A DNA stretch of 64,000 nucleotides. Source: Octopus vulgaris (lineage: Eukaryota). The position numbers were made by a program, and so were the translations under genes. Numbering within the stretch: the first letter of the stretch is position 1; the number at the start of each line of letters is the position of its first letter. Positions 6,284-63,810 of the stretch are shown here, in pieces. The stretch is taken from assembly GCA_951406725.2 (NCBI GenBank), contig OX597825.1, forward strand, positions 87,792,001-87,856,000, given 5' to 3'. Below the pieces are notes generated by a model. That model was not told where the DNA came from and did no database searches. It saw only the letters and a list, made by a program, of their open reading frames with translations.

Positions 6284-6812
6284 AAAGGTCAATCACAAAA
6301 AAGATAGATGGCATGTCAGACCTTGACTACTGGGGTAGACTAGAGAAGCTGAAATTGTATTCACTCCAACGACGCCGTGAACGCTACATTATCTGTATGA
6401 TGTGGAAAATATTCCATCAGCACTGTCCGAATGATGTTGGCATCACCTTCAAAATGCATCCAAGGCTTGGACCACGTGCCATCCGTCCACAACAAAAATC
6501 TAAATCGCATCACATAACAACAATACGGCACAACTATTTCACCTCAATTGGACCCGCTCTCTTCAACATTACACCAGGACACGTCAAAAAAGAAACTGAC
6601 CACACAAAATTCAAGAAGTCTTTGGACAAATTCCTTCAAACAGTACCGGACAAACCATCCACACCCGGATATGTCTCCGCAAACAATAACTCTCTGCTCG
6701 AATGGGCCTTGGTGCCCAAATCCTGAACTGAAAGACTTCGCCAGGTGGTGCTATTAAGTTAGACATGGCCTGGGCCAATACTGGCCAAAAACCTTTCTAA
6801 GTTATTCTAAGT
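6284..6812 (+). mobile_element. CR1-group LINE, short 5'-truncated copy 1 (ORF2 C-terminus + 3'UTR)
   Basis: Translates [31 protein letters not shown]...[16 protein letters not shown]. Highly similar to 8297-8830, flanked by (TA)n on both sides, with a CTAAGTTAT-type tail repeat. Confidence 0.9.
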
Positions 6813-9302
<2,490 letters not shown>

Positions 9303-11426: not shown

Positions 11427-11796
11427 TTTATTTGCATATTGTATTTGTAATTTTTTACTTATATCTCTTTATCTTTTTACTTTTACTATTACTGTATATC
11501 TCATTTCATTTTATATATTGCCTTTACTCCTATGTAATGGTGTATTAAAGTATGGATTGAGTATCATCGGATAGTTGATGTTTTATTGATTTAAGTATGT
11601 TTCTCCATTCTCTAATTTTGTAGTATTAATTTACGGTAATATTATTACCCTTACCCATTTAATACAATAGATGAACTGATTGCTTGACAATTTCTAACAT
11701 CTATGTATTAATTTTTGTTGGGTACCTATCTAGCAGTATATTGGATATATATTATCCCATGGTGGGTTGAATTTTCAACCCCTATCTCATTTTATA

Positions 11797-12863
<1,067 letters not shown>

Positions 12864-12929
12864 TAAATATATAAAAATATAAAAAAAAAAAAAATATATA
12901 TATAAAGGAAATATAAATAACAGTATAGG

Positions 12930-14050
12930 TACATGTGTCAATCCGTTACGGCCGTTTCTAGTGATTTCTTTAATTGATTAATGAAAACATTACAACACGA
13001 CACTGAACCGCAAAAGACAGGCGAGACGTGACTCTGAAATGTGTTTTAATTTCACTATGTAAAAGATAAATTTTGCTAAATCTGATAAAGTCAATTTCTT
13101 GGATGCACTTCGACCATATTCTGTGGGTCGTTGTCATGTGTTCTGGTAGTGGGCAGATCCTGCACATCGATATTGCAGGGTGTGACATGTTCAATACCGG
13201 TACATGGAGTGCATGAGGCGGTTAACAAAAGCCACAGGCACCTGTGACCACAGCCTGAAGAAAGCTGCTTCCATTTCCACACGAGTTGTCGGCCTTGGTA
13301 CCACCTGGTCCAGCCACCTCTGTATTGCATCCCACCACAGGTGTTCAATTGGGTTCAAACCCGGGCCGAGAGTCTGCCTCGACACAGTTCTGGTGTCGTG
13401 CTAACGCAGGAAGTTCCATGGTTACGCTAGCCGTGTGGGAAGGAGCATTGTCCTGTTTGACACGTGGTTATGGTGACGCACGATGTAGGGCACGGTGTGA
13501 GGTCTTAGGATCTGATCAATGTAGCGCTGCGCTGTGATGCCATTCCCTCTGCCCGCACCAACATTCAGGTCTATAGCACTCCAAACCATATTGTTTTGAC
13601 CACTCCACGCAATTCTCTCCATGACACGTGCGTCTTTGTGGCGTTCACCCCTCCTACACCACACTATTAGTCTGCCGTCCAAGATGGAAACGCAGTACCT
13701 CCACTGTTGATGCTGCCAATGTCGGTGCTGTGTAGTCCACTGTAGTTGTGCCTGACGGTGGCCGGCGGTGAGGAGAGGCCCTCGAGTAGGACGACGGCAA
13801 TGCAGGTTGTTGGAGGCCAGTCGACGTCGTACCGTGTCGTCGCTGATGGGCCGCTGTTCAGTGTCAATGGTCTCGCTAGCTGACACGTGGGCCTGTCTGT
13901 AGCGTTCACGGAGCTGTTGCAGGTGGACGAAGTAGACCTGTCTGGGCGTGGTCACCAGGGAGCGCCCACCGCGTGAACGGTCTGCAGTGCTGTTGGTCTT
14001 GTTGTATCGTTGTTGTAGGCGAAAGATCGTGCTGAAATGGACATGGATAT
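12930..14050 (-). mobile_element. Tc1-family DNA transposon remnant (frameshifted transposase)
   Basis: Motifs STIFRLQQRY..T.STADR.R.GR..VTTPRQ, TVRRRL...LHCRRP, W..QHRHW, GITAQRYIDQILRPH and PGLNPIEHLW. Probable 3' terminus at TA 12930-12931; the 5' end is missing. Confidence 0.85.
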
Positions 14051-14199
14051 CATTCGGTCGGTATTTAATTTTTAACACGAATTCAGATATCTGAAATATA
14101 TTGCAGCATAAAATCTTGTTTTAATTTGAGAATTCTCTTCGTTCCCAGTTCATTTGTGAGTAGAATATTCAAAATACTTCGCCATTATCCTATTATTCC

Positions 14200-21712: not shown

Positions 21713-21768
<56 letters not shown>

Positions 21769-21769
<1 letters not shown>

Positions 21770-22492
21770 CAAGAAGGTCGATATACCTCGTAGGATGAGT
21801 TCCTGGATCTTAAGAACTTTCCGGTCCAGAGAACAAGGTGTCATCATACCACTTTTCTCCTCCTTTGTACGGCCACACCTTGAATACTGCTGCCCACTGT
21901 GGTCTCCCCATACAAGACAAAACATCTCCAGAATTGAGTCACCCAGAGGGCACTCACTAAACGAGTTGAAGGCATGGCTGCTCTCGATTATTGGGATCGC
22001 CTTAAAGCCTTGGAACTCTACTCCCTCCAGCATCGCCGTGAGCGGTACATCATTTGTACGATGTGGAGAATATACCGCCAACTTTGCCCAAACGACCTTA
22101 ACATTAGCTTCAAGGTTCATCCAAGACTGGGACCACGGGCCATACGTCCCCTGCCCAATTCAAGATCACAACATACATGTACACTGCAACATAATTTCTT
22201 TTCCTCAACAGGCCCTGCCCTATTTAACATTGTCCCGAGGGAGATCAAAGAGGAAAAGGATCCCATCAACTTTAAACGAAGTCTGGATAGATTCCTTCAA
22301 AGAATACCAGATAAGCCACCCATAATTGGATACAACTCACCCAACAAAAACTCACTACTTGAACAAAACTTGACTTAAACAAAACTTGAGTTAAACAGGA
22401 TTCGAATAATCCTATCCTGTGGTGCTATTAAGTTAGACATGGCCTGGAGCAATCTTTGGTCGAAACATATCTAGGTTATCTAAGTTATATAA
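21769..22492 (+). mobile_element. CR1-group LINE, 5'-truncated copy 3 (diverged subfamily, one frameshift)
   Basis: Translates RRMSSWILRTFRSR...RPHLEYCCPLWSPH and [14 protein letters not shown]...FKRSLDRFLQRIPDKP. Has the same 3' motif GTGGTGCTATTAAGTTAGACATGGCCTGG. The 5' flank is (CT)n(TA)n. Confidence 0.9.
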
Positions 22493-26582: not shown

Positions 26583-27283
26583 CAGTGGGTGGGTGCGCGC
26601 GCATGTGTGTGTATACGTAATTTTCATAAAAAACTGCTGGTAAATTTATTATAGATTAGCACTCGCGTATGCTTTGACCAAAAAAAATTAAATTTAGTTT
26701 ATGGTCTAATGCTTCGGAAGTAATAGAATGGTTTATTGATGTTAACGGTAAAAAACGTAGCAAATTCATTCAAGTTGTTATATCTAACTGTTACACCTCT
26801 ATTAACCCTATCATACTTAATAAAACGTTAATGTTTGCGATGAGGATTTCAGATTTCTCAATCAAGTTGATATGCTAACGGCTAGTGAAACTATAATAGA
26901 ACTAGAAGAAAAGAACTAGACTCGGAAATTTAGATCAGATAAGTTTGACATTACGAGAGAGTTCTCTGATACCGCCAAAGCATTACACTGAGTACAGATG
27001 TATATTCTTCAATGTAGACATCGTGAATAACCGCATTGGATGTGGGACAATATAGGGATGGCTCTCTGTTTACTCTTTATAGGTATTCTAAATTAAAAAA
27101 AGAAAGATACAGAAAGAACTGTTTAAACTAAAGATCTTTGTTTTTCTATCTTTATTGAAAGTAAAAATATCAAAATTCTTCGAAATCATTTTACTCTCGG
27201 GTACCGAACCAAACCCGCCATACCATGAGCGAATGAATTTCTTTGGTACGTAGGTAAAAATTCTAATTATTCTAAAGTGTGTG

Positions 27284-27372: not shown

Positions 27373-27416
<44 letters not shown>

Positions 27417-27699
27417 TAGCATTAAAGACCCGTCGTTGTCGGGTCATAGTGCTAGTGCATGTATATATGTGTATATATATGTGTACATATTACATGTACA
27501 TCTATATATATACATCTACACATAAAATACAAAATACAAAGTTATATCTTGATATCGCTAGTGATAACAATACTCAAATTATATAAGAGACTGGAATTGT
27601 TAGCCCGTCTCTTGTAATTTAGATCAATTGTATCTTGTCCTCCCTCTTGTATAGAAGTGTGGCTACAATCCAGCCTACCTCTACTTCGGGGGGGAGGGG

Positions 27700-27908
27700 G
27701 GCATTTAAATTTTTTTCCGGGACGTCCTACGCCCGAGATATAAAGGTAAAAATAAAATATTTCCACTTTGCAAGTTCGAATCGAGTACTCCCTTGCACGC
27801 TCCGTTGATTCGAACCTTGCTTCTATTGTGGCGAATTTACCGCCTCTGATTAGATACCTTTCATAGTCGCACCAAGACACTTTTCGAAGGTGCTTTCCTC
27901 CATGTTAT
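27700..27908 (-). pseudogene. Decayed ORF1 homolog, part downstream of the insertion site
   Basis: NMEESTFEKCL, YLIRGGKFATIEARFESTERAREYS and LPLYLGRRTSR align with INMEAIEEAF, YMTKGLEYGTITVQFKSEKAARNIA and FPSYLNRKTTR of the intact ORF1s. Confidence 0.7.
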
Positions 27909-28052
27909 TTCTTTATTACCCACCAGGGGCTACGAAGAATGGCGGACATAACAAAACATGGGGGACATAGAACAATATGATTAAATTTATGAGCAAATGA
28001 AAATGAAAAAATGATAATATGAAAGCGATGCTAACGGCCCCCTCCGCCAGCA

Positions 28053-29416
28053 TCACTTACCTGTCCTTTTGTTTTCACTGTCACCTGAATGTTCATTCCC
28101 AATACGAAGACCATCCATATCCATTCTTACTCCGAAACTGTCCTCCATATATTCCACGAATTCATCGCTCATTCTTGTATCTTTCACCTCCCAATTCTCC
28201 CTTTCACACCTCAACACAAACTCATCTATATTCTTCTTTTCCAGCACTGCATATCTGGTCCCATCCATTTCATACCATTCATACTCCTCCATTACCCTTG
28301 TAACTTCTTTCTGTTCAGTCACAATATAAATGTTCGGCCTGGGTTCGTTTTCAAACTCTTGTCTGTCTGTATTGTTATTTTTCTTTTGTTTCTTGTTGGA
28401 GAGGAGCGGGTGGGTTCACTGTCTGCAGGGGAAGGGTGGGATTCAGAGGGTGCGGGTGGTGTTGGGGTGGGTTGGGGCTTCGCACAGTTTTTCTTTTTCT
28501 TTCTTTTTCTCTTTTTTCTTCCTTCTTCCCACTCTTGTTGCATCTCTTCTTCTTCTGTCGTTTCTTTTTCCGTTTGGTTCTCTTTGGTTTCTTCCTCTTT
28601 TGGGGCTTCCGCGACGATTTCCTTTTCTTTTTCCTTTGGTGGGGGAGGGCAGTAGGCTCTTATGTGACCCCTCAGGCCACACTTGTAGCACCTGGGCGCC
28701 CTACCCTCCACCCACACTCTCATAATAATATTTCCAGTTTTTATACTGTCCGTAAGCTTTTCTATAACTTCCGCCTCCGTCTGTATGTTCATTACTAGTG
28801 TGGCACCTCTCACGCCTTCATATTTCATAATGGCGTGGAGGATGTCCACTTTATCTTCATTTCCTTTGATAACCGCAGCCGTTATTAATTCGCCCTCTAG
28901 GTGTGGAGGTATTCCTTCCACCCTAATTCTGGTGGTCTTTCTATTCAAATACGAGGGGAACAAGTAAAACTTTTCTGTACTCACCACCTTGGCTGCTATA
29001 TTCCTGGCTGCTTTCTCACTTTTAAATTGTACCGTTATGGTTCCATATTCTAATCCTTTTGTCATGTACACAATTTCTTCTCCTGTCTGTTTGAAAGCCT
29101 CTTCAATTGCTTCCATGTTAATCACTTCCATTTTTCTACCTCTATTCATAAATACTTTATATTTAATGGTTCTACGATGGAACCAGTCTCCGCGCCCTGC
29201 TAGAGGGAACAGCTCAACCTCTCCGTTCTCCTCCTCCTTCATGAACTCCTGGAAGTCCGTCAACTTAGCCAGGTCTATCTCTTTTTCTGTTGACTTCTTC
29301 GTTATACCTGCGTAGGTGCTTTCCATTTTTTTCACTGCCAACTCCTCCTCAGATGTCGACGAATTTTCAGAGAAATTTCTCCCTTCCATCTCATCCGTTT
29401 GGTAGAGGCGGCTCAT
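28053..29416 (-). pseudogene. L1/Tx1-type ORF1 (RRM-like + CCHC knuckle), unit A, one frameshift near 28340-28400
   Basis: Likely ATG at 29416 (MSRLYQ), position-homologous to the starts of units B and C. Contains CYKCGLRGHIRAYC. The C-terminal 89 aa continue in ORF 28053-28322. Confidence 0.8.
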
Positions 29417-29456
29417 AGTCGCCTCCGACCGAAAAACGGCCTCCCGAACAGAAAAC

Positions 29457-29510
29457 GTGCGACGCACAGAACCAGTGCGACGCACAGAACTAGTGCGACG
29501 CGAAACCGCA
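29457..29510. repeat. Three tandem 18-bp CpG-rich units in the unit A 5'UTR
   Basis: GTGCGACGCACAGAACCA / GTGCGACGCACAGAACTA / GTGCGACGCGAAACCGCA. Confidence 0.85.
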
Positions 29511-29769
29511 CCAACCGACGTTCCAATTCCGCAACCACAATTCACTTTTTGTTCTTTTTTCTTTTTTAACCGAATTTTACAGAGCGCCAAAAAACGCGAC
29601 CTTTTTTCTCTACATTGTATTTCTTTATTACCCACTAGGGGCGACACAGAGGGGGACACCAAAAGACATGGGGACAAAGAACATTATAATTAAAATTTAT
29701 GAAAAATGAATTGTTAAGTGAAAGAAAATGATATTATGAAAGCGATACCAGCGGCCCCATCCGTCAGCA

Positions 29770-31188
29770 TCACTTACCTGTCCTTTGTTTTTCATCGTCC
29801 CTTGAATGTTCTTTGCCAATACGAATAAATTCCATATCCATTCTTACTCCGAAATACTCATCCATATTTTCCACGAATTCATCGCTCATTCTTATATCTT
29901 TCACCTCCCAATTCTCCCTTTCACACCTCACCATAAACTCCCCTATGTTCTTCTTTTCAATCACAGCATACCTAGTCTCACCAACTTCATACCATTTATA
30001 CTCTTCCATTAGACTTTTAACTTCTTTCTGTTCAGTCATAGTACAAATGTACGGCCTGATATCGAATTCAATCTCTTGTCTGTGTGTGTATTCTTTTTTT
30101 TCTTTTGTTTTCTTGTTGGGGGAGCGGGTGGGTTCAATGTCTGCATGGATAGGGTGGGACTCAGAGGGTGTGGGTGGTTTTGGGGTAGATTGGTGTTCCA
30201 TAGTATTTTCTTTTTTTCCACGCATTCTTCTCTTCCTCTTATTTCCAGCTTCCTTCCATTTCTGTGTATTCTCTTCCTCTGTTTCCTTCTCCTCTGGTTT
30301 CTGCTTCTCTCTCTCTGGTTCGGAATCCATTTCTTTCCCTGGGGGAGGGCAGAAGGCTCTTATGTGACCCCTCAGGCCACACTTGTAACAACGTGGAGCC
30401 CTGCCCTCCACCCACACTCTCATGATCACGTCTCCCAGTCTGATGCTTTCCGTCAGGTCCACCAGTACCTCGGTCTCTGCCTGTACGTTCAGCTCCACTG
30501 TTACGCCTCTCCAGCCCTCGGACTTAACCGAGGCATGGAGAATATCCACTTCGTCCTCGTGGCCGCTGATCACAGCCGCCACAATCCATTCTGCCTCCAC
30601 GTTTGGTGGCACTCCCTCCACCCTTATTCGTGTAATCCTCCTGTTTAAATACGTAGGTAATAGGGTTACCTTTTCTGACTTCACCGGCTTCGCCGCCATC
30701 TTCCTCGCTGCAGACTCAGTTTTGAAATGCACAACTACGGTACCGTACTTGGATCCTCGAGTCAGAAAATTTATTTCCTCCTCAGTTCTTCGCAGGGCCT
30801 CCTCTATCCATTCCATGGTTACAACTTCTGCCCTCTTCCTTTCGTTTGCGAACACCCTGTAACTAATGGTCCTCTTATCATACCATTCTTTTCTCCTGGG
30901 TGTCGGTGATAGTTCCACCTCACCGCTTTCCTTTTTCATGTATTTCTGGTAACTTGGCAACTTGGCCATGTCTACCCCTTTCTCTTCCACCTTCTTGGTT
31001 ACACCGGCATAGGTATAACCCAGCTTCTCTTCCAAATTCCTTGCTGCCATTTCTAGCTCTTTCTCAGACGTAGGCAGGTCTGATAAAGACTCGAAAATTC
31101 CAGCCTTTTCTTCCATCAGCTTCATTGCAATTGCCTGTTCCAGTTCCTCATCTGTCGTGGACAAGTCTGTTAGAGACTCATAGTCCAT
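29770..31188 (-). CDS. L1/Tx1-type ORF1-like nucleic-acid-binding protein, unit B (472 aa, intact)
   Basis: Acidic coiled-coil-like N-terminus, TYAGV motif, RRM-like RIRVEGVPP region, CX2CX4HX4C knuckle, K/R-rich NLS-like stretch and a conserved C-terminal domain. The unit spans ~29621-31253. Confidence 0.88.
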   Translation of the reverse strand: MDYESLTDLSTTDEELEQAIAMKLMEEKAGIFESLSDLPTSEKELEMAARNLEEKLGYTYAGVTKKVEEKGVDMAKLPSYQKYMKKESGEVELSPTPRRKEWYDKRTISYRVFANERKRAEVVTMEWIEEALRRTEEEINFLTRGSKYGTVVVHFKTESAARKMAAKPVKSEKVTLLPTYLNRRITRIRVEGVPPNVEAEWIVAAVISGHEDEVDILHASVKSEGWRGVTVELNVQAETEVLVDLTESIRLGDVIMRVWVEGRAPRCYKCGLRGHIRAFCPPPGKEMDSEPEREKQKPEEKETEEENTQKWKEAGNKRKRRMRGKKENTMEHQSTPKPPTPSESHPIHADIEPTRSPNKKTKEKKEYTHRQEIEFDIRPYICTMTEQKEVKSLMEEYKWYEVGETRYAVIEKKNIGEFMVRCERENWEVKDIRMSDEFVENMDEYFGVRMDMEFIRIGKEHSRDDEKQRTGK

Positions 31189-31402
31189 TTCCTTCTGTCT
31201 GACAGACCGAGAACGGCCGCCAAAACAGAAAAAGTGTAACGCGCTGAACGAGCTTTTTCTTTATTACCCACTAGGGGCGACACAGAGGGGGACACCACGA
31301 AACATGGGGACATATAACATTATAATTAAACTTTATGAAGATGAATTGTTAAACGAAAAAATGATTAAATGAAAGCGATACCAACGGCCCCGTCCGTCAG
31401 CA

Positions 31403-32818
31403 TCACTTACCTGTCCTTTGTTTTTCATAGTCACTTGAATGTTCTTTGCCAATACGAATAAATTCCATATCCATTCTTACTCCGAAATACTCATCCATAT
31501 TTTCCACGAATTCATCGCTCATTCTTATATCTTTCACCTCCCAATTCTCGCATTCACACATCACCATAAAGTCACCTATGTTCTTCTTTTCAATCACAGC
31601 ATACCTAGTCTCACCAACATCATACCATTTATACTCTTCCATTAGACTTTTAACTTCTTTCTGTTCAGTCATAGTACAAATGTACGGCCTGATATCGATT
31701 TCAATCTCTTGTGTGTGTGTATTCTTTTTTTTCTTTTGTTTTCTTGTTGGGGGGGAGCGGGTGGGTTCAATGTCTGCATGGATAGGGTGGGACTCAGAGG
31801 GCGTGGGTGGTTTTGGGGTGGATTGGAGTTCCATATTATTTTCTTTTCCACGTATTCTTCTCTTCCTCTTACTTCCAGCTTCCTTCCATTTCTGTGTATT
31901 CTCTTCCTCTGTTTCCTTCTCCTCTGGTTTCTGCTTCTCTTTCTCTGGTTCGGGATCCATTTCTTTCCCTGGGGGAGGGCAGAAGGCTCTTATGTGACCC
32001 CTCAGGCCACACTTGTAACAACGTGGAGCCCTGCCCTCCACCCACACTCTCATGATCACTTCTCCCAGTCTGATGCTTTCCGTCAGGTCCACCAGTACCT
32101 CGGTCTCTGCCTGTACGTTCAGCTCCACTGTTATGCCTCTCCAGCCCTCGGACTTAACCGAGGCATGGAGAATATCCACTTCGTCCTCGTGGCCGCTGAT
32201 CACAGCCGCCACAATCCATTCTGCCTCCACGTTTGGTGGCACTCCCTCCACCCTTATTCGTGTAATCCTCCTGTTTAAATACGTAGGTAACAGTATTACC
32301 TTTTCCGACTTCACCGCCTTCGCTGCCATCTTCCTCGCTGCAGATTCACTTTTAAAGTGCACAACTACGGTCCCGTACTTGGATCCTCGAGTCAGAAAGT
32401 TTATTTCCTCCTCAGTTCTTCGCAGGGCTTCCTCTATCCATTCCATGGATACAACTTCTACCCTCTTCCTTTCGTTTGCGCACACCCTGTAAACAATGGT
32501 CCTCTTATCATACCATTCTTTTCTCCTGGGTGTCGGTGATAGTTCCACCTCACCGCTTTCCTTTTCCATGTATTTCTGGTAACTTGGCAACTTGGCCATG
32601 TCGACCCCTTTCTCTTCCACCTTCTTGGTTACACCGGCATAGGTATAACCCAGCTTCTCTTCCAAATTCCTTGCTGCCATTTCTAGCTCTTTCTCAGACG
32701 TAGGCAGGTCTGATAAAGACTCGAAAATTCCAGCCTTTTCTTCCATCAGCTTCATTGCAATTGCCTGTTCCAGTTCCTCATCTGTCGTGGACAAGTCTGT
32801 TAGAGACTCATAGTCCAT
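31403..32818 (-). CDS. L1/Tx1-type ORF1-like protein, unit C (471 aa, intact)
   Basis: Near-identical paralog of unit B. The unit spans ~31254-32974, and its tail AATAAAGAAAAA joins into the unit B 5'UTR. Confidence 0.88.
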   Translation of the reverse strand: MDYESLTDLSTTDEELEQAIAMKLMEEKAGIFESLSDLPTSEKELEMAARNLEEKLGYTYAGVTKKVEEKGVDMAKLPSYQKYMEKESGEVELSPTPRRKEWYDKRTIVYRVCANERKRVEVVSMEWIEEALRRTEEEINFLTRGSKYGTVVVHFKSESAARKMAAKAVKSEKVILLPTYLNRRITRIRVEGVPPNVEAEWIVAAVISGHEDEVDILHASVKSEGWRGITVELNVQAETEVLVDLTESIRLGEVIMRVWVEGRAPRCYKCGLRGHIRAFCPPPGKEMDPEPEKEKQKPEEKETEEENTQKWKEAGSKRKRRIRGKENNMELQSTPKPPTPSESHPIHADIEPTRSPPTRKQKKKKNTHTQEIEIDIRPYICTMTEQKEVKSLMEEYKWYDVGETRYAVIEKKNIGDFMVMCECENWEVKDIRMSDEFVENMDEYFGVRMDMEFIRIGKEHSSDYEKQRTGK

Positions 32819-32971
32819 TTCCTTCTGTCTGACAGACCGAGAACGGCCGCCAAAACAGAAAAAGTGTAACGCGCTGAACGAGCGAAACGCGAAACCGCGT
32901 CAACGCTTTTTGTTCTTTTTTTTACCGAATTTCAGGAGCCGAAAAAAAAAACACGGAGCCGAAAAAAACAT

Positions 32972-33070
32972 GACCTTTTTCCTCTACATTGTATACTTTA
33001 TAGACAATAGTCTTTTTTTAAATTTAATTTTATTATTATCCATCTGGACTATTCCATTTCTGCACGCTAA
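32972..33070 (-). pseudogene. Decayed ORF1 homolog, part upstream of the insertion site
   Basis: RNGIVQM...KF and KKTIVYKVYNVEEK (frameshift in an A-run) align with ENGEVEL...WFHRRTIKYKVF and KRTIVYRV. Confidence 0.6.
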
Positions 33071-34339
33071 TTTTATTTTTAATTTATTCCCATTCATGTG
33101 AAACCACTTATGCAATTTTATACCAATTGCTATTTTTACTTTTGTTATGTTACGATTATATTATACTTTAGTTTGATTTTAATTATTACTTACTACATAT
33201 AATTCAATTGTTATTATTATCATTATTGTTAAAGTGAAAGTATCTGATATAAAATAGAGAAACGTTTTTGTTTCTCTTTTAACACGTAATACTGAAATAG
33301 TGGAGAAGATATGATATTGCTATGGGCTCGCTCTAGGCAAGACGTTGAACATTTTTTTTGCCCATGAAACTACATGGATCCTAAGTAAGGCATGTGTAAA
33401 ATTTGAATGAAATCGGTTGTGTAGTTCTCAAGTTTTAGGGAAACACACAGACAGACAGGCAGACACACATTCTCAGTTTTATATATATAAAGATATATAT
33501 ATGTGTGTGTGTGTGTGTGTGTATTTATATATTGATGTCTGTGTTTGAAATGTTACGCTTACACACGCAGTATACACAATGCGGAAGCAATATCTCCCTA
33601 CATACACACACACACACACGCAGGCACACATAGTATTTCAGATAATATTTTGTAATTCTCTGTTTTAATGTTCAATGTTTTGAAACATTGAAACAAGCTG
33701 CAAGACGAAAAACAGAAGCTTTCCTAATTCTACCTTGACGATATTTGCTTAGTTTACATTTAAATTCTTTATTTTTCGTAATATGTCAATAAACTGAGTC
33801 TACAACATACAGAAATAAATTCCATCGAAAAACATTCCTCAGCAGAACGGAAACCGTTTTTTAAAAGTGAAGACATCGTATTTAAATAACCAGTTTGTTT
33901 TGAAACAAAGTTATATCATGTAATACATTTAGCAACAAATGCTTTATATATTTTATATAATATGTTTACTTGGATCTTCGCTCATTGCAGAAATCTCTGT
34001 TAACCTTATACATAGCATGTGTAACTTAATATACATAAAAATAGTGCTAAAATTGATTTAGCTTTGAATGTATCATATATATATGTATATATATAAGTTC
34101 TATCTTCAGCGTTCAATTAACAACAAAATTGATGTATGTGCAATTCTCTCAATGTTTATTCTCTGAAATAATTATTATATTCAGCTTGCCATAATTATCT
34201 TCTATAAATATTTCGAAATTGATATAAACAACGAATTATAATTTAAAGATAATTCACGTAGAATACTGATCATACGGTCTATCAAAGCATTGATTTATCA
34301 GCATCTGAAATCCTGATGAGGATGTGGATCCTGTACTAC

Positions 34340-34379
<40 letters not shown>

Positions 34380-34529
34380 ACGCACACACGTACACACATA
34401 TTCCATTGTTCAAATGCACGTCTTGCTTCTCTGTTTAATTGCAAATATGTTGAGCTCGTTAAGTAAGATGGAGACCCCTTACTGTAAACCCAACGGCCAA
34501 GAAGACACCCAGAGATAGATAGATAGAGA

Positions 34530-36884: not shown

Positions 36885-37055
36885 AATTTTGGCACAGGGC
36901 CCGCAAGTTGGAACCATGTGTTCAGTTGGTTCTCATTTATGGACCGCGAAAGAACGAAAGGAAAAGTGGGCCTCGGTGGAATGTGAACTCAGAACGTAAA
37001 GACGGATGAAATACAGCTAAGCATTTTGTCCGGCGTGCTAACCATTCTGCCAGCT
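36885..37055 (-). mobile_element. SINE, family of 63580-63810
   Basis: Minus strand reads AGCTGGCAGAATGGTTAGCACGCCGGACAAAATGCTTAGC...TTCTGAGTTCACATTCC. Confidence 0.75.
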
Positions 37056-44784: not shown

Positions 44785-44809
44785 CGGATATTTCTAAGAG
44801 CTTTGAGAA

Positions 44810-44980
44810 TTGTTAGCACGCCGGATAAATTACTTAGCAGCGTTTCGTTCAGACTTAAGAAATGAGTTCAAATCCAACCGAAGTCGACTTCACTCTACAT
44901 CCTTTCGAGGTCGATAAAATGAATAGTATTTGAATAATCGACTTACCCCCTCCCTTAAACTTGCTGGCCTTGTATTTCAA
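44810..44980 (+). mobile_element. SINE, family of 63580-63810, diverged
   Basis: GTTAGCACGCCGG...GAGTTCAAATCC...GTCGACTT...CATCCTTTCGAGGTCGATAAAAT. Confidence 0.75.
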
Positions 44981-53012: not shown

Positions 53013-55349
53013 AGGTACAATAACCTATTTAGATCTTTGTCCCCCCCCCTCTTTCTACAACCTCAAGGACTGCTGATATTTATCTTCCGACCGTTTTATA
53101 GCGTCCTATTTTTATAATTACACTATTTACACCATTTCCTGTATTTGCAACTTTACCATTAACTTTATATACGTGTTTTCGCTTCCATCCCCAGTAAATT
53201 TTATCCCTGTATTAGCTTCTACTTTCTCATGAAATAAAGGAAACAACTTCCATTTAAAACTCGATCTCTCTTTATCAATTTATACAGCTATGTATCTGTA
53301 TCTATTTTTATATCATCCACTTTGCTTTTATTTATTCTCCTCTGTCACACCACATTTTCTTCACTCTAGATTTTCATCACACATTCAATACACATTGACT
53401 GTTTCAGTCATGAAAAATTTCGTTTTCAAATAGTCCAACTTATATTTAACTATATATTTTACAAGCGGCCTCAATTCTTCATGTCTTTCAAAAGTACTTC
53501 TGAGCATATTGTCATCTCTCTGTTATCCACATGTATTCATACTTCCATACACACAATGATCCTGTATGGACACTTTCCGATCTGCTACTTCCAATGTATT
53601 TGGTCCAATGAAGAGAAAGTTAAGGAAAAATAGAAAAAAAAAACGAACTCTGTGTCGTATGGGATCAAACACTCAATGAGGGGACAACTAAAGAAAATTC
53701 TGATTCTCTTAGCGAAGCCTGGGACAGATAAATTTTCATATGTTACCGCGGTTATTTATATTGTCCGAACAGAAAGAATTGATGGGTAGGAACAGGACGA
53801 CGAGAATGACAGATAACATAGTTATAAATTAGTTTTAGAATAAAAATTAACCTAACGAACTAAGCCTTTATCGGCTTGCTGAGATGCTAGAAATAGCAGC
53901 CAAATTCTTCTCGTGTTTCACTGTATCGTTTTGAAAACGAAGGAACTCATTCCCTGTTGTAGCTCTAAAATGGATAATTGAAGTTCAATGATAGTCATGA
54001 CCAGAAAACATATTAGTATGGCTCTGGTAATCAAGATATATACATGGGTGTTAAAGAATTGCTTCTGACTGCCCGTTGTTAAAGAACTGCTATGAAGACA
54101 AAGTTATTTCTAACCCCTTTTTTTCTTCCGGCTCTAAATCTGAGTGAATTGTTCTGTCTTTCATTGCAGGTCTTCTTTTATATTAGTTTATTTCTGTAAG
54201 TTTATTGGTTTCAAAGAACTTTTCACCCTTGTTTTGGAAATCATTGATATTAAGTGGATTAAGGTTTTCCTGATTGCAAGATTTAGTATTTGTAGTGCGA
54301 GATACAATAACAGTCTTTAGACTAAAATAGTCATATCACTGAAATGCTTTATTGGGTACTACATACACGGGGGTCCGGAACTAAGGTACTGTAACATGTA
54401 TTTATATAAAGGTAAATTTACACGCATCCGTTAATATTTGCATTATATCAAAGTGATTATAAGATTTGCCAGGGCTTTTAACCACAGAGAATATCATTTT
54501 TACAAAATGCCTTATATTTTTGTTTTAGCCCTCGTCTTCATATTTTAGTTATCTGCATTTGGGTCGGGGATCTGAACTGTCAACAATCTAAGTGAAGGAT
54601 GAAATATTTGATTTACTCTGAAAAATATACAACAACGCACTTTCTCCTTTCTGCTAAGCAAAATATTCTGAAACAGCGATTGAAACAGTTTCTGTTTTGG
54701 AATCAATATGCATGTTATGACATTTTCATCTTTTATTTCTCGTTCTCTTCTTCTCAATGCTTTCTTTCGATCTGTTTCGTAAATATTTGTTCTTTTCTCA
54801 TCGAATTCATCGATGAATAACTTTTTTTTAAGTGTTCCACTCGCTTGAATTAACATTCCACATTTATATATACAGTTACTCAAGAGATGACAGCCTCGAA
54901 CAAAATTTAGCGATTATTTAAAGTGTGCGATCGATAACGTATATCTATATCACCATGGCTTTATCACGCCCCACCTCTCTCTCTCTCTCTCTCTCTCATA
55001 CACTTTCCATCTCTCCCAACGTTTCCCTCTCTCTAACTCTCTCCCCACTCTGTCTACACAGACACACGCACACTTATACGTATTAAACTATGTATAGATG
55101 CAGGTGTATCTGTGAGTATGTTTGCGCATCATTCAGTTGCGATATTCAAAAGCTCCTACACGTACAGGTTCCATGCAGTTAGCTTTACTCATACACACCA
55201 CTATGGATTCACACACTATGGATTCACACACTTACATATGTACACACACATGGGTAACACTTAACATAAAGAATATATTGTGTTGAACATTTCTAGTCTA
55301 CTTCGTTTGCAGAACGCCCCACAGAAGTATTTTAATATTAGTTTCAAAC

Positions 55350-55895
55350 TTTTCGTGTCTTTACGCTCTGGGTTCAAATTCTGCCGAGGTCGACTTTGTC
55401 TTTAATCCTTTCGGGGTCGATAAATGAAGAACCAGTTGCGTACTGGGGTCGATCTAATCGACTGACCCTCTGCCTCAAAATTGCGGTCCTTGTGCCTAGA
55501 GTAGAAAAGAATATTATTTTCAAATTTTTCGTCTGTCTTTACGTACTGAGTTCAAATTCTACCGAAGTCGACTTTGTCTTTCATTCTTTCGGGGTCGATA
55601 AATGAAGTACCAGTTGCACACTGGGGTCGATCTAATCGACTGACCCCACCTCCCCCAAAATTTCGGGCCTTGTAACTAAGTAGAAGAGTATTACTTTAAA
55701 ATTCTGGCACAGGGACAGTAATTTCGGGGCATATGATAAGTCGATTACATGAACCCTGTGTACAGCTGGTACTTATTATATCGACCCCGAAAGGATGGAT
55801 GTTAAAGTCGACATTGGACAAACTTGAACACAAAGATAAACAAAATGCCGTTAAGCTATTAATCCGGCGTGCTAACGACACCGCCAGCTCGCCGC
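55350..55895. mobile_element. SINE cluster: two tandem plus-strand copies (55350-55510, 55525-55690) and one minus-strand copy (55700-55895)
   Basis: Repeated GTTCAAATTCT.CCGA.GTCGACTTTGTCTTT.AT.CTTTCGGGGTCGATAAATGAA and its reverse complement. Confidence 0.85.
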
Positions 55896-58284: not shown

Positions 58285-58683
58285 GCTTCCAAAGTTTGGC
58301 AGAAGACCAGCAATTTCTAGGGAATTATTTAAGTCGATTATATCGACCCCATTACTCAATTAATACATCGGTGGTATTTGGACTTAGAAATTAATGTCTG
58401 AAGAAATGTTGCAAAGAATTTTATCGGTGTGGTAAGGATTCTGCCAGATCACCGCCATATAAGGACAAATAAACGTTGGCTTAAAATTTGTTGCACAAGT
58501 CCAGCAATTTTGGAGGAGAGAGTATGTTACATGGGCCCCAGTAGTCAGCTGGTACTTATTTTATCGACACGAAAAAGTGAAGAACAAAGTCGAACTCGAT
58601 GTCATTTGAACACGAAACATTAAGACGGACGAAATACCACTAAGCCTTTTGTCCGGCGTGCTAACGATTCTGCCAGCTTGCCA
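58285..58683 (-). mobile_element. Two tandem diverged SINE copies, family of 63580-63810
   Basis: Plus strand reads CCGGCGTGCTAACGATTCTGCCAGC (58653-58678) and CGGTGTGGTAAGGATTCTGCCAG (58425-58447). Confidence 0.75.
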
Positions 58684-61434
58684 CATTAAAAATGGAAGTC
58701 AATTCACTGTTGTTTCTTATTTTGATATTACTTAATATTATTCGTAGACCAAAAACGTCAGCATTATTTAATAGAAAGAATTTCAATGGTCCAATATTTT
58801 TATAGTTCCAATATTCAGTGCTACAACAATATCCGTTCATATGCAATATAGAAAAAGTCAGTTTTACATTTAAATTTAGATTGTTTCTTCCGAACAGCAT
58901 GTGAGACTGTTCGTTTCTGTGAATTAAAATGGAGCTCAAATTACAGAGAAATTCATGAGAGAACAGGCAACTGTTCGAAGAATTAGTGTGAGCAATTCTT
59001 CGATAGTTAATGTGCATTTTATAACTTGAATTACATCAAAAAATGATTGATTGATGATATCGAGATTATTTCACAATTGATAAACGTAATAGTTAGTAAC
59101 TTTAATAAGAATGTGTTTAGAATGAAAGGCGGTGTGTGTAGTTCTTCGAGTAATTCCGAAACTAGACAGTCCAAATATCTTGCTGATAATGACTAACGTC
59201 TGTAGGTTTGTTTTACATAGATTTGAAAACGAAATAATTTTTCGAAAAAGCAGTTCTGGGAAGGAAGATATTTTAGGAAAGAATTCATTATCTAGTGAAG
59301 ACTTTCAAGGACATGCAATGTAGAAATTTCAGTTTCTAATTGCATACACTTGGAAGAATGTGATGAGCTGAGGCTGTTATTGCGCTAATAGAAAATATTA
59401 TTTTACATAATTATTGCACAGTATATTTTAGGCATTTCTAAAAATATCAGTTAGGAATTGAATGATGGTAGTTTAGTTTAAATTTGCGAGACAGACATAG
59501 TAAGTTACGCGTTAACGATAAAGAACAATTCATGAAAATGAGGCAGTTAGTGGCCATCATCTTTCATAATTTAATATAACACGTAAGGTGTAGGGTACCG
59601 AGTATCTAATCAGGGATATTTATGACTGGAGATTCCAGTTTTTACATGATATTAAAACATGGTATAAATTCGTTTTGTTAGAAGCACTTACATAAATGAG
59701 AATCACGGTCATTGTGTCAATATGAAACTTACTTATATTCATTTAACAAAAACTAATTAATTATGAAAGCATGTATTAATTGTTGTCTCACTAAGTTTAT
59801 CAAATTAAAAATGAAACATATTGTGTGATGATTTTCTCATTAATTCTTTCGACTAAATTTCCGATAACCAAAGTTTCTAAATTTAAAAAATAAACGAACA
59901 AACAAACAAAAGCAATGTGCGACACGACTTAAATTTAAGTACTCTCTCAGTGTATTTAAATTTCCCTTTGTTATAAATTAATATGTTTAATTTAATCAAA
60001 TATGTCAATGTAAGTGTACAAGATAATTTCTAAACTGCTTTAAAAGCGTCAATGAAATAACTTACTCCGGTGACAGACATTGATAATTTTATGATAAATG
60101 TATGAACGTAAGCAATCTTTGAATATTAAACAATAAGCGCCAACACATTTGCGTTTCTATCTTTTTTTTCCCTCGTACAATTTTAGAAATTATTGAAGGT
60201 AGACATAAGCACAAGGCGTATAGCTTGAACCATACATTTCTCCCTGCAATCGAAAGATAAATTTTCTGTTTCAACATTAGAAACTGATTGCAATTTTACA
60301 GAAATGTATTGTAATATGTGGTAAAAAGATGTCTTGCGAAATTGCTTAATTTAAATATGATTTAACTATTTATATCATACTTTCGATAAAAGATAATAAT
60401 ATAAGATTTCTAAGAAAGCTTCAGGAAATCAGTGACTTGTAATCTGTTGATAGCAGAAAAGACAAGGGAGGAAATGTCTTACATTGAGTAAGCTGGGGTC
60501 GACCAAAACTGATCTATTGTTACTTCAAGAAGGCTTTTAAAAATAGGAAATCTTACAAAGAGGTATAAACATTTTTCGCGAACAACCAAAAAGAAAAGAA
60601 ATTAGGAAGCGCTCAAAAATGCAGGCATCCAAATGTGATATTTATTTGTGTAAATAAAAAATTTATCACATTTTTCTGAGAATATTCTGTACATAAAGCA
60701 TTCCCTAGCTTGCCTTGTTATTTGGAAATATGCAAAGAAAAGTGCGATACTATTATATATGCTAAGAAAAGATTTCATATTGAAATGTATATAAATTTAA
60801 AATTAAATTAGTTTCTAGCATTTTTTTTAATATTGCACAATCAGCAGAAAAGGCAAAATATTTTCTTTCACGAGGTTGACAGTGAGTTAGGAAATTAGTT
60901 TATGAGTTTGTCATTGTTAGAATTTGAGGAAAATATTAGTAAGGCCTTCGGTTACAGATGTGTATAATACGTGGTATAGGAGCCAAACCCCATTTTCAAT
61001 GTACAATAATTTTCTGAGAAAGAAATCGTGACAAAACATACCGCCTGAAATGTGTCATGATTATTATGGTTCAATATATACCACCTTCTATACATCGTTA
61101 TAGAAAAAGGATATATATATATATATGCATATATGTATATATTTTGCTGCAGGATATATCTGAAAACGTAATGCAGACACCCATACACCCCCACACGTAT
61201 ATATATAATCGCTATGATACCGAGTATGTTCTGCAGTGCAATCCGTGTTTTAGTTTCCATATTAAACCTACTATTCAGAAAAAAAAATAATAATAACAAA
61301 TACAAGTTTACTTATAAAGGTTTCATTAGGCTGATACTCGAGTTCTGCCCTCACTTATTTTAATTTATCTGGTTTCTAAGAAGTTCATTTGCCCACGCGC
61401 GCAAACGCACAAACGCGCACACATGCATGCATGT

Positions 61435-61974: not shown

Positions 61975-62150
61975 GGGCAACGTGTTGGCAGAAACGTTAC
62001 CACGCTGGGCAAAATGATTAGCAATCCTTTTTACGTCCTGAGTCAAACTTCGATGTTGACTTTGCCATTCATTATTTAGGGGTTGATAAAATAAGTACCA
62101 GTTAAACAGTGAGGTCGATACAATCAACTTGCCTCCCCGCTGCCGAAATA
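61975..62150 (+). mobile_element. SINE, family of 63580-63810, diverged
   Basis: TGGCAGAAACGTTACCACGCTGGGCAAAATG...GGGGTTGATAAAATAAGTACCAG. Confidence 0.75.
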
Positions 62151-62923: not shown

Positions 62924-63579
62924 GTATTTTATTCGCTTCCAGGATTTTTCATGTTACTTGAACATATTTAAAAATTCCTCCCGATTCTGTTAAATACCAT
63001 TTTTTTAAATGTCATTATTCGCACGATCCCTTTGTTATGGTTGAATGGATCATGTTGTGTTCCGTGCAGAGATACATGACAACCTATAATCATCCCTAAC
63101 AAACCAGGTAAATGCATCACCAATATGGTTATAATTAACTTCACACTAAAACCAATGATAAAACACAAAAACACTAAAATTTTCAAAACAACATTTTATT
63201 GGCAACTAACCTCTTTCAGGTAAAGTTTTCAAAATACTTCCAGTTATGGAATATTATTTACCAATTTGATTCTGATGCTGAAAGTTTTGAAGTGGAAGCC
63301 CGGAAGTTTATATGACACCCATTCACTGTTACAAATTTCCATATAAACATGGAATACGAAGGAAAAGTAAAACTTTGAGCAACGAAACAACGATTTCACA
63401 GTAAAGAAAATGATTATAAAGCTCAGAATATATAGCTCGTTAAATGTAAGTGTGAATGTTGAAAGAGCACAGAGAAGAGGGCGCTGATGCTAAGTCAATA
63501 AATAATGAAAATAATCACATGGCTGAGAACATCATATCTTACATTGTTCAGCGAGAGGTTAATGGTATGAGAGGTTAAT

Positions 63580-63810
63580 GGCGGCGAGCTGGCAGAAACG
63601 TTAGCACGCCGGGGGAAATGCGAAGCCGTATTTCGTCTGCCGTTACGTTCTGAGTTCAAATTCCGCGGAGGTCGACTCTGCCTTTCATCCTTTCGGGATC
63701 GATAAATTAAGTACCAGTTACGGACTGGGGTCGATGTAATAGAATTAATCCCTTTGTCTGTCCTTGTTTGTCCTCTCTGTGTTCAACCCCTTGTGGGTAG
63801 TAAAGAAATA
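63580..63810 (+). mobile_element. Full-length young tRNA-derived SINE with LINE-type tail
   Basis: Head GGCGGCGAGCTGGCAGAAACGTTAGCACGCCG, B box GAGTTCAAATTCC, central GCCTTTCATCCTTTCGGGATCGATAAATTAAGTACCAG (Meta-domain-like, from recall) and tail CCCCTTGTGGGTAGTAAAGAAATA. Confidence 0.85.

Follow-up and report, generated by a model that had tools for sequence, protein, structure and literature searches.

A 64-kb stretch of the Octopus vulgaris genome (assembly GCA_951406725.2, contig OX597825.1, positions 87,792,001 to 87,856,000; hereafter the window), which is animal DNA rich in microsatellites, harbors a nest of mobile elements between positions 27416 and 33493. All its parts lie on the minus strand: Helitron-type ends enclose a decayed piece of an ORF1 gene, and this relic is in turn interrupted by an array of three units (U1, U2, and U3) that code for ORF1 only (Table 1). 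The nest is known from this one locus. The original prediction had described canonical Helitron ends enclosing an ORF1 fragment and three units on a single strand, as well as a Helitron of about 1 kb without its array. Motif scans and folding bore out the ends, profile matches on both sides of the array confirmed the enclosed fragment, and the element without the array measured 994–1017 nt, a range that reflects alternative readings of the junction. An Rfam scan of positions 30000–34500 returned nine matches, every one below its gathering score.

Table 1. Features of the nested element in the window, listed in minus-strand order.
Feature	Position	Strand	Remarks
Helitron-like 5′ head: TC (33493–33492) after host A, (TA)n-AAAA, (CTGT)-type tract	33330–33493	−	Inner boundary approximate; layout as in insect Hel-2
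AT-rich spacer, 25% GC, without detectable ORF1 similarity	33030–33329	−	Shuffle comparison
Upstream piece, decayed ORF1 relic, profile positions 144–161	32976–33029	−	Profile independent E-value 0.012; shares its final 18 nt with motif A
Motif A, 19 nt (TACAATGTAGAGGAAAAAG), likely target-site duplication, made of relic sequence and placed at left junction	32975–32993	−	
Unit U1, ORF1-only element, intact 471-aa open reading frame 32818–31403	31256–32974	−	Ends in motif B (GGTAATAAAGAAA, 31268–31256)
Unit U2, 5′-shortened relative to U1, intact 472-aa open reading frame 31188–29770	29620–31255	−	96% identical to U1
Second copy of motif A, one change in 19 nt, between U2 and U3	29601–29619	−	
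Unit U3, different subfamily, frameshifted ORF1	27908–29600	−	Ends in motif B (27920–27908)
Downstream piece, ORF1 relic, profile positions 165–265	27607–27907	−	Three frame switches, in-frame stop; ends before zinc knuckle
AT-rich 3′ spacer	27457–27606	−	27457–27525 is a purine-pyrimidine alternating microsatellite (91% alternation)
42-nt near-palindrome with 6-bp hairpin (27427–27445)	27415–27456		CTAG at 27419–27416 (minus) and at 27452–27455 (plus)

On the minus strand, the 5′ end of the Helitron reads A/TC at 33494/33493 and continues into a (TA)n-AAAA stretch and a (CTGT)-type tract; a loose head scan of both strands found this pattern once in the 64 kb. The 3′ end is composed of a 19-nt hairpin (27445–27427; 6-bp stem GACCCG/CGGGTC, 7-nt loop), a 7-nt spacer, and CTAG (27419–27416) followed by T. 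The hairpin lies 11 nt from the 3′ end of the element, in agreement with the Helitron pattern of CTRR with a 16–20-nt hairpin about 11 nt upstream, and its fold had a z score of −5.2 to −5.7, none of 200 shuffles being equally stable. In a strict scan for hairpin, CTRR, and T, the 27416 site was unique in the window, while six Markov-simulated windows gave 0, 0, 1, 0, 1, and 1 matches; a looser scan for hairpin and CTRR gave seven matches, five of them away from the 3′ end. Searches for the hairpin motif in metagenome contigs yielded 12 loci, all of which were rejected as chance matches (49–69% GC, with only 19–26 nt matching the window), and viral contigs gave no match to the end motif. A 630-nt unique stretch (26640–27270), without match elsewhere in the window, lies between two microsatellites to the left of the hairpin.

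The near-palindrome around the 3′ end was found to be real, with its end at 27456 rather than at the predicted 27455. Either of its strands scores as a Helitron 3′ end, the plus-strand CTAG/T falling at 27455, and the palindrome hence does not settle which ends belong together; alternating purine-pyrimidine microsatellite borders it on both sides. The A/T insertion site is present and is given little weight because both flanks consist of TA microsatellite. Comparison of head and tail for subterminal inverted repeats like those of Hel-2 and DINE-1 elements revealed only TA runs and 8-nt AT-rich matches. The two-way palindrome in its microsatellite setting, the lack of such a shared repeat, and the fact that Helitrons leave no target-site duplication (TSD) by which to pair ends would all suit a locus in which the head is a truncated Helitron, the palindrome is a separate tail-to-tail hairpin element within the microsatellite, and the relic and array are host DNA caught between them. 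This arrangement is considered unlikely, as the only head in the window aims at this tail from about 1 kb and the left side of the palindrome showed no plus-strand head. A rough estimate puts the chance of one head and one strict tail being so arranged, if independently placed, at 1–2%. With the array removed, a lone head points to a lone strict tail about 1 kb away; hence, head and tail probably belong to one element, and the pair of ends likely represents a single non-autonomous Helitron.

The ORF1 relic was delineated with a profile of 145 database ORF1 proteins from which the window proteins were excluded. Upstream of the array, the profile matched 33029–32976; downstream, four consecutive pieces were matched within 27906–27607 (independent E-values 0.19, 8e-9, 2.5e-6, and 2.9e-8). 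The pieces stand in protein order on either side of the array, and the flanks gave no comparable match. Since the two relic parts adjoin in the protein, the array sits inside one pre-existing relic. Protein comparison showed that 100 of 155 proteins matched one of the two relic pieces; the upstream piece was matched by four of the 155, with a best E-value of 3.6e-5. Upstream of 33030, the relic showed no detectable extension (score of 318 versus a shuffle mean of 338, with 174 of 200 shuffles scoring at least as high). The relic is an internal ORF1 fragment devoid of the ORF1 start, the knuckle, and the 3′ end, and is therefore not itself a retrotransposition product. A perfect hairpin, CTAG, and TC placed around a relic with at least three frameshifts and a stop suggest that the relic was already decayed when the Helitron enclosed it. 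Such capture is ordinary, as gene fragments are reported in >18% of intact silkworm Helitrons (PMC3789558).

The units are 1.6–1.7 kb in length, encode neither an endonuclease nor a reverse transcriptase, and are all three closed by AATAAA and the short A-rich end of motif B. Intact ORF1 genes had been predicted; this holds for U1 and U2, with 471 and 472 aa, respectively, and fails for U3, which is frameshifted near 28390. U1 and U2 are 96% identical, and U3 shares 75–76% identity with them over about 1.14 kb. The conserved core of ORF1 gave a predicted structure with a predicted local distance difference test score (pLDDT) of 89.9 that matched tandem RNA recognition motif (RRM) proteins (best E-value 1.8e-5), zf-CCHC was matched by 14 of 75 ORF1 family members, and the language-model neighbors of ORF1 included ZCCHC3 RNA-binding domains (score 0.90). 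ORF1 is thus read as two RRMs and a CCHC knuckle, an architecture which we take to be the mark of L1/Tx1-type ORF1 proteins, and on ORF1 architecture alone the units fit the L1/Tx1 type. The five database relatives of ORF1 are all from O. vulgaris, and the more distant ones are from O. vulgaris, O. sinensis, and O. bimaculoides.

Nonsynonymous (dN) and synonymous (dS) divergence amounted to 0.032 and 0.066 between U1 and U2, and to 0.28 and about 3 between the cores of U2 and U3. These values indicate that the units derive from lineages under selection, and the U2–U3 values further point to separate active lineages rather than local duplication. An element with ORF1 only, purifying selection, and a 3′ poly(A) signal resembles the half-L1 (HAL1) type.

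Several further features of the units were observed. A perfect splice donor, AG/GTAAGT, overlaps the ORF1 stop codon in all three units (31414–31405, 29781–29772, and 28064–28055, minus strand), and the final stretch of ORF1 is used as an exon in O. vulgaris gene models, once appended to a CFAP65-like gene model. Between U1 and U2, a compensated −2/+2 frameshift at ORF1 nt 1065–1109 leaves both frames open. Divergence along the units is patchy, with 0–13 changes per 150 nt, which hints at mosaic copies. The leader of U3 contains an 18-nt short tandem repeat (29448–29497) that also scores as a loose hairpin and CTRR end on both strands, probably by chance.

The junctions of the array bear on the order of insertion. 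Motif A precedes U1 and, with one change, U3. The joint between U1 and U2 displayed two extra A's, a shortened U2, and no motif A. The pre-insertion site can be read in three ways. In the first, motifs A and B abutted each other and, in the second, a short A-rich overlap was shared by both; these two readings keep a spacing of 23 between two ORF1 anchor residues, as present in 48 of 53 family proteins, and require a small deletion in return. The third, a decayed third copy of the TSD, is ranked lowest, since eight codons would have to be missing and 16 nt to carry four changes next to a U3 that is nearly intact. Whichever reading is taken, the landing points of the two unit subfamilies in the relic lie no more than about 25 nt apart. 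The second insertion may have recognized either the relic or the 5′ junction of U3. As two subfamilies with about 75% identity occupy one site with a 19-nt relic duplicate between them, it is likely that one site in the relic was hit separately at least twice. At this locus, the landing-pad role proposed for the fragment in the original prediction is supported to that extent.

No second head, tail, or relic was found within the 64-kb window. Parts of the stretch were listed in 19 of 24 runs, under four organism labels, which is not taken as evidence on the Helitron, most of the stretch being unit sequence. Comparison of the 112-aa open frame of the relic with proteins of 61–196 aa gave three candidates, none at an E-value of 0.01, and a profile that included the relic pieces recovered only its own three input proteins from 2590 candidates; both are weak negatives, broken frames being rarely annotated. 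The database proteins that were retrieved showed no match to the Helitron head, the tail, or the untranslated regions of the units. Five O. vulgaris gene models, CAI9726624.1, CAI9732829.1, CAI9729171.1, CAI9741250.1, and CAI9720020.1, contain the final 87 aa of the units at 89–95% identity to U1/U2, on scaffolds of five different lengths, and thus the unit family is dispersed. None of the five showed a U3-like repeat or a U1-U2-U3 combination. Two of them carry three repeats each, which differ from one another by 0–1 in 87 aa as compared with 6, 25, and 29 differences among U1, U2, and U3, and one of these mixes two variants that also occur apart. The repeats being unlike U1-U2-U3, the gene models argue weakly against co-amplification, and fit a pool of active copies whose members arrived independently better than the copying of this composite.

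Co-transposition, in which a filled 6-kb Helitron is copied by rolling circle and spreads intact ORF1 genes, is consistent with two ends that look intact, with near-identical three-repeat structures in two gene models on different scaffolds, and with the reported movement of a 1006-bp Hel-2, containing about 577 bp of another transposon, as a unit into a baculovirus genome (PMC4344730). It is nevertheless rated as unlikely in view of the repeat differences and the mixed variants described above, and also because hitchhiking was rejected for SINEU-3 in Mariner-N4 (PMC4494074).

A further explanation operates at the level of a family: a Helitron subfamily would have amplified the captured relic, and its copies would receive independent insertions of ORF1-only elements and of their autonomous partner, in the manner of Tx1L in Tx1D. 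Capture with later transposition is compatible with the perfect ends that surround a decayed relic, and two arrivals are seen at one site. Non-autonomous piggyBac, Mariner, and Harbinger elements are known targets of the Tx1 clade (PMC4494074), and O. vulgaris is reported to contain 84 Helitron and 80 L1-Tx1 families, both with recently active members (PMC13282606). L1-Tx1 is also listed among the families expanded in coleoids in an account whose available text mentions Helitrons once (PMC8967140). The lack of a second copy in the 64 kb and the two empty relic protein searches, weak as these negatives are, count against such a family, and this explanation is regarded as possible though doubtful.

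The interpretation that we tentatively favor, while granting it slightly less than an even chance, is that a single non-autonomous Helitron of about 1 kb captured a decayed L1/Tx1-type ORF1 piece and became the passive host to at least two target-primed insertions of ORF1-only retroelements, each an event of its own. The ORF1 piece, internal in origin, would have been decayed by the time the Helitron acquired it. U3 would be the first arrival in the relic, and a U1/U2-type element would then have inserted at the left junction, duplicating motif A. U1 was joined to the shortened U2 without a motif A duplication, likely because the reverse transcriptase jumped between templates; local duplication is the alternative. 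Endonuclease and reverse transcriptase would be supplied in trans by an autonomous L1/Tx1 element, none of which was seen at the locus. The units likely target either ORF1 sequence as such or the junction that they themselves regenerate, and the Helitron is probably just the place where one such target lies; once filled, it need not have moved again.

Several observations weigh against this interpretation. To the right of U3 there is no clean motif A: the 14 nt at that place agree with it at 12 of 16 positions, given a 2-nt gap, a level that 85 of 127,964 window positions attain equally well, and the same 14 nt can be read as ordinary ORF1 codons. The TSD of the first event is therefore left ambiguous. 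Because the gene models are spliced, a tandem order of their repeats is not proven, and their flanks are not covered; exactly three repeats in two of the five could also result from a copied three-unit array. The evidence comes from a single locus. Furthermore, non-autonomous Helitrons commonly amplify acquired sequence (PMC4038834), and a copy met at random is thus likelier to come from an amplified subfamily, which favors the family-level explanation. Taken together, the nest is real, and a landing-pad family is plausible but unproven.

In its widest form, the proposal is that an octopus Helitron subfamily captured and multiplied a dead ORF1 scrap of one L1/Tx1 lineage, mass-producing a site into which a kindred ORF1-only retroelement homed. 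Though rather improbable at present, this would mean that a rolling-circle transposon makes a niche for a retrotransposon whose original target was the ORF1 of its relatives. A landing-pad family would show how a site-specific retroelement gains a large, harmless target pool through Helitron capture and amplification, would add Helitrons to piggyBac, Mariner, and Harbinger as hosts of Tx1-type elements, and would allow target capture to be dated against target use. If the nest is confined to one locus, it is an ordinary case of nesting, with interest shifting to why ORF1-only elements land in the ORF1 of a relative.

Other repeats were identified in the window. A 498-aa open frame at 7243–8739 (plus strand) encodes a reverse transcriptase of the non-LTR type (lacking long terminal repeats), presumably CR1/L2-like, with partial copies at 6284–7241 and 21763–22485. 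A 232-aa frame at 13422–14120 (minus strand) resembles what we take to be a remnant of a Tc1/mariner transposase. A dispersed family of ∼110–200-nt repeats resembling short interspersed nuclear elements occurs at 36911–37055, 44806–44974, 55334–55895, 58493–58689, 61986–62129, and 63575–63747, with tandem and inverted copies near 55.3–55.9 kb. A (TA)n run of >1 kb extends over about 11790–12880, and more long runs lie near 6.8–7.3 and 8.8–9.3 kb.

Literature searches gave no paper on a non-LTR retrotransposon inserted into a Helitron, and none of the titles or abstracts listed dealt with a Helitron/Tx1 composite in octopus; the families may already be present in Repbase or in the consensus library of PMC13282606. 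Similar to Lep1 and Hel-2 of insects, the octopus element has a 5′ TC, (CTGT)n near the 5′ end, a 3′ stem-loop, CTAG, an apparent A/T site, and a probably acquired interior (PMC4344730, PMC4038834). The comparison is one of layout and not of sequence, and the octopus element differs in that no subterminal inverted repeats were found in it and in having a two-way palindrome as its 3′ end. Acquired ends of Lep1 are described as shared among the elements of one species (PMC4038834). The units resemble HAL1, a non-autonomous non-LTR element that encodes ORF1p only; however, HAL1 is described from mammals, whereas the octopus ORF1 has two RRMs and a ZCCHC3-like CCHC knuckle, and the available part of the HAL1 account makes no mention of site preference or tandem stacking (PMC5753468).

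Tandem non-autonomous retroelements within a DNA transposon are also known from crocodilians, the analogue that has been studied best, where SINEU-3 and Tx1 families occupy Mariner-N4_AMi; there, tandem insertions sandwich a 16-nt TSD, compared with about 19 nt in octopus, and independent insertion was shown (PMC4494074). In that system 313 of 347 copies are host-flanked, as against a single locus in octopus, and SINEU elements carry small nuclear RNA heads, whereas the octopus units code for ORF1. A further parallel is Tx1L in Tx1D of Xenopus laevis, a non-LTR element with an L1/Tx1-type ORF1 inside a non-autonomous piggyBac transposon, other Tx1 families being directed to Mariner and Harbinger (PMC1950540, PMC4494074). 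In octopus, the host is Helitron-like instead of piggyBac, the inserts carry ORF1 only, without endonuclease or reverse transcriptase, and the insertion site lies in the relic of a kindred ORF1. As to a long TSD, the 19-nt motif A is duplicated, with one change, around U1-U2 and has no clean copy to the right of U3. Tx1L occupies a fixed site across many host copies, whereas in octopus two subfamilies share one site in one host copy.

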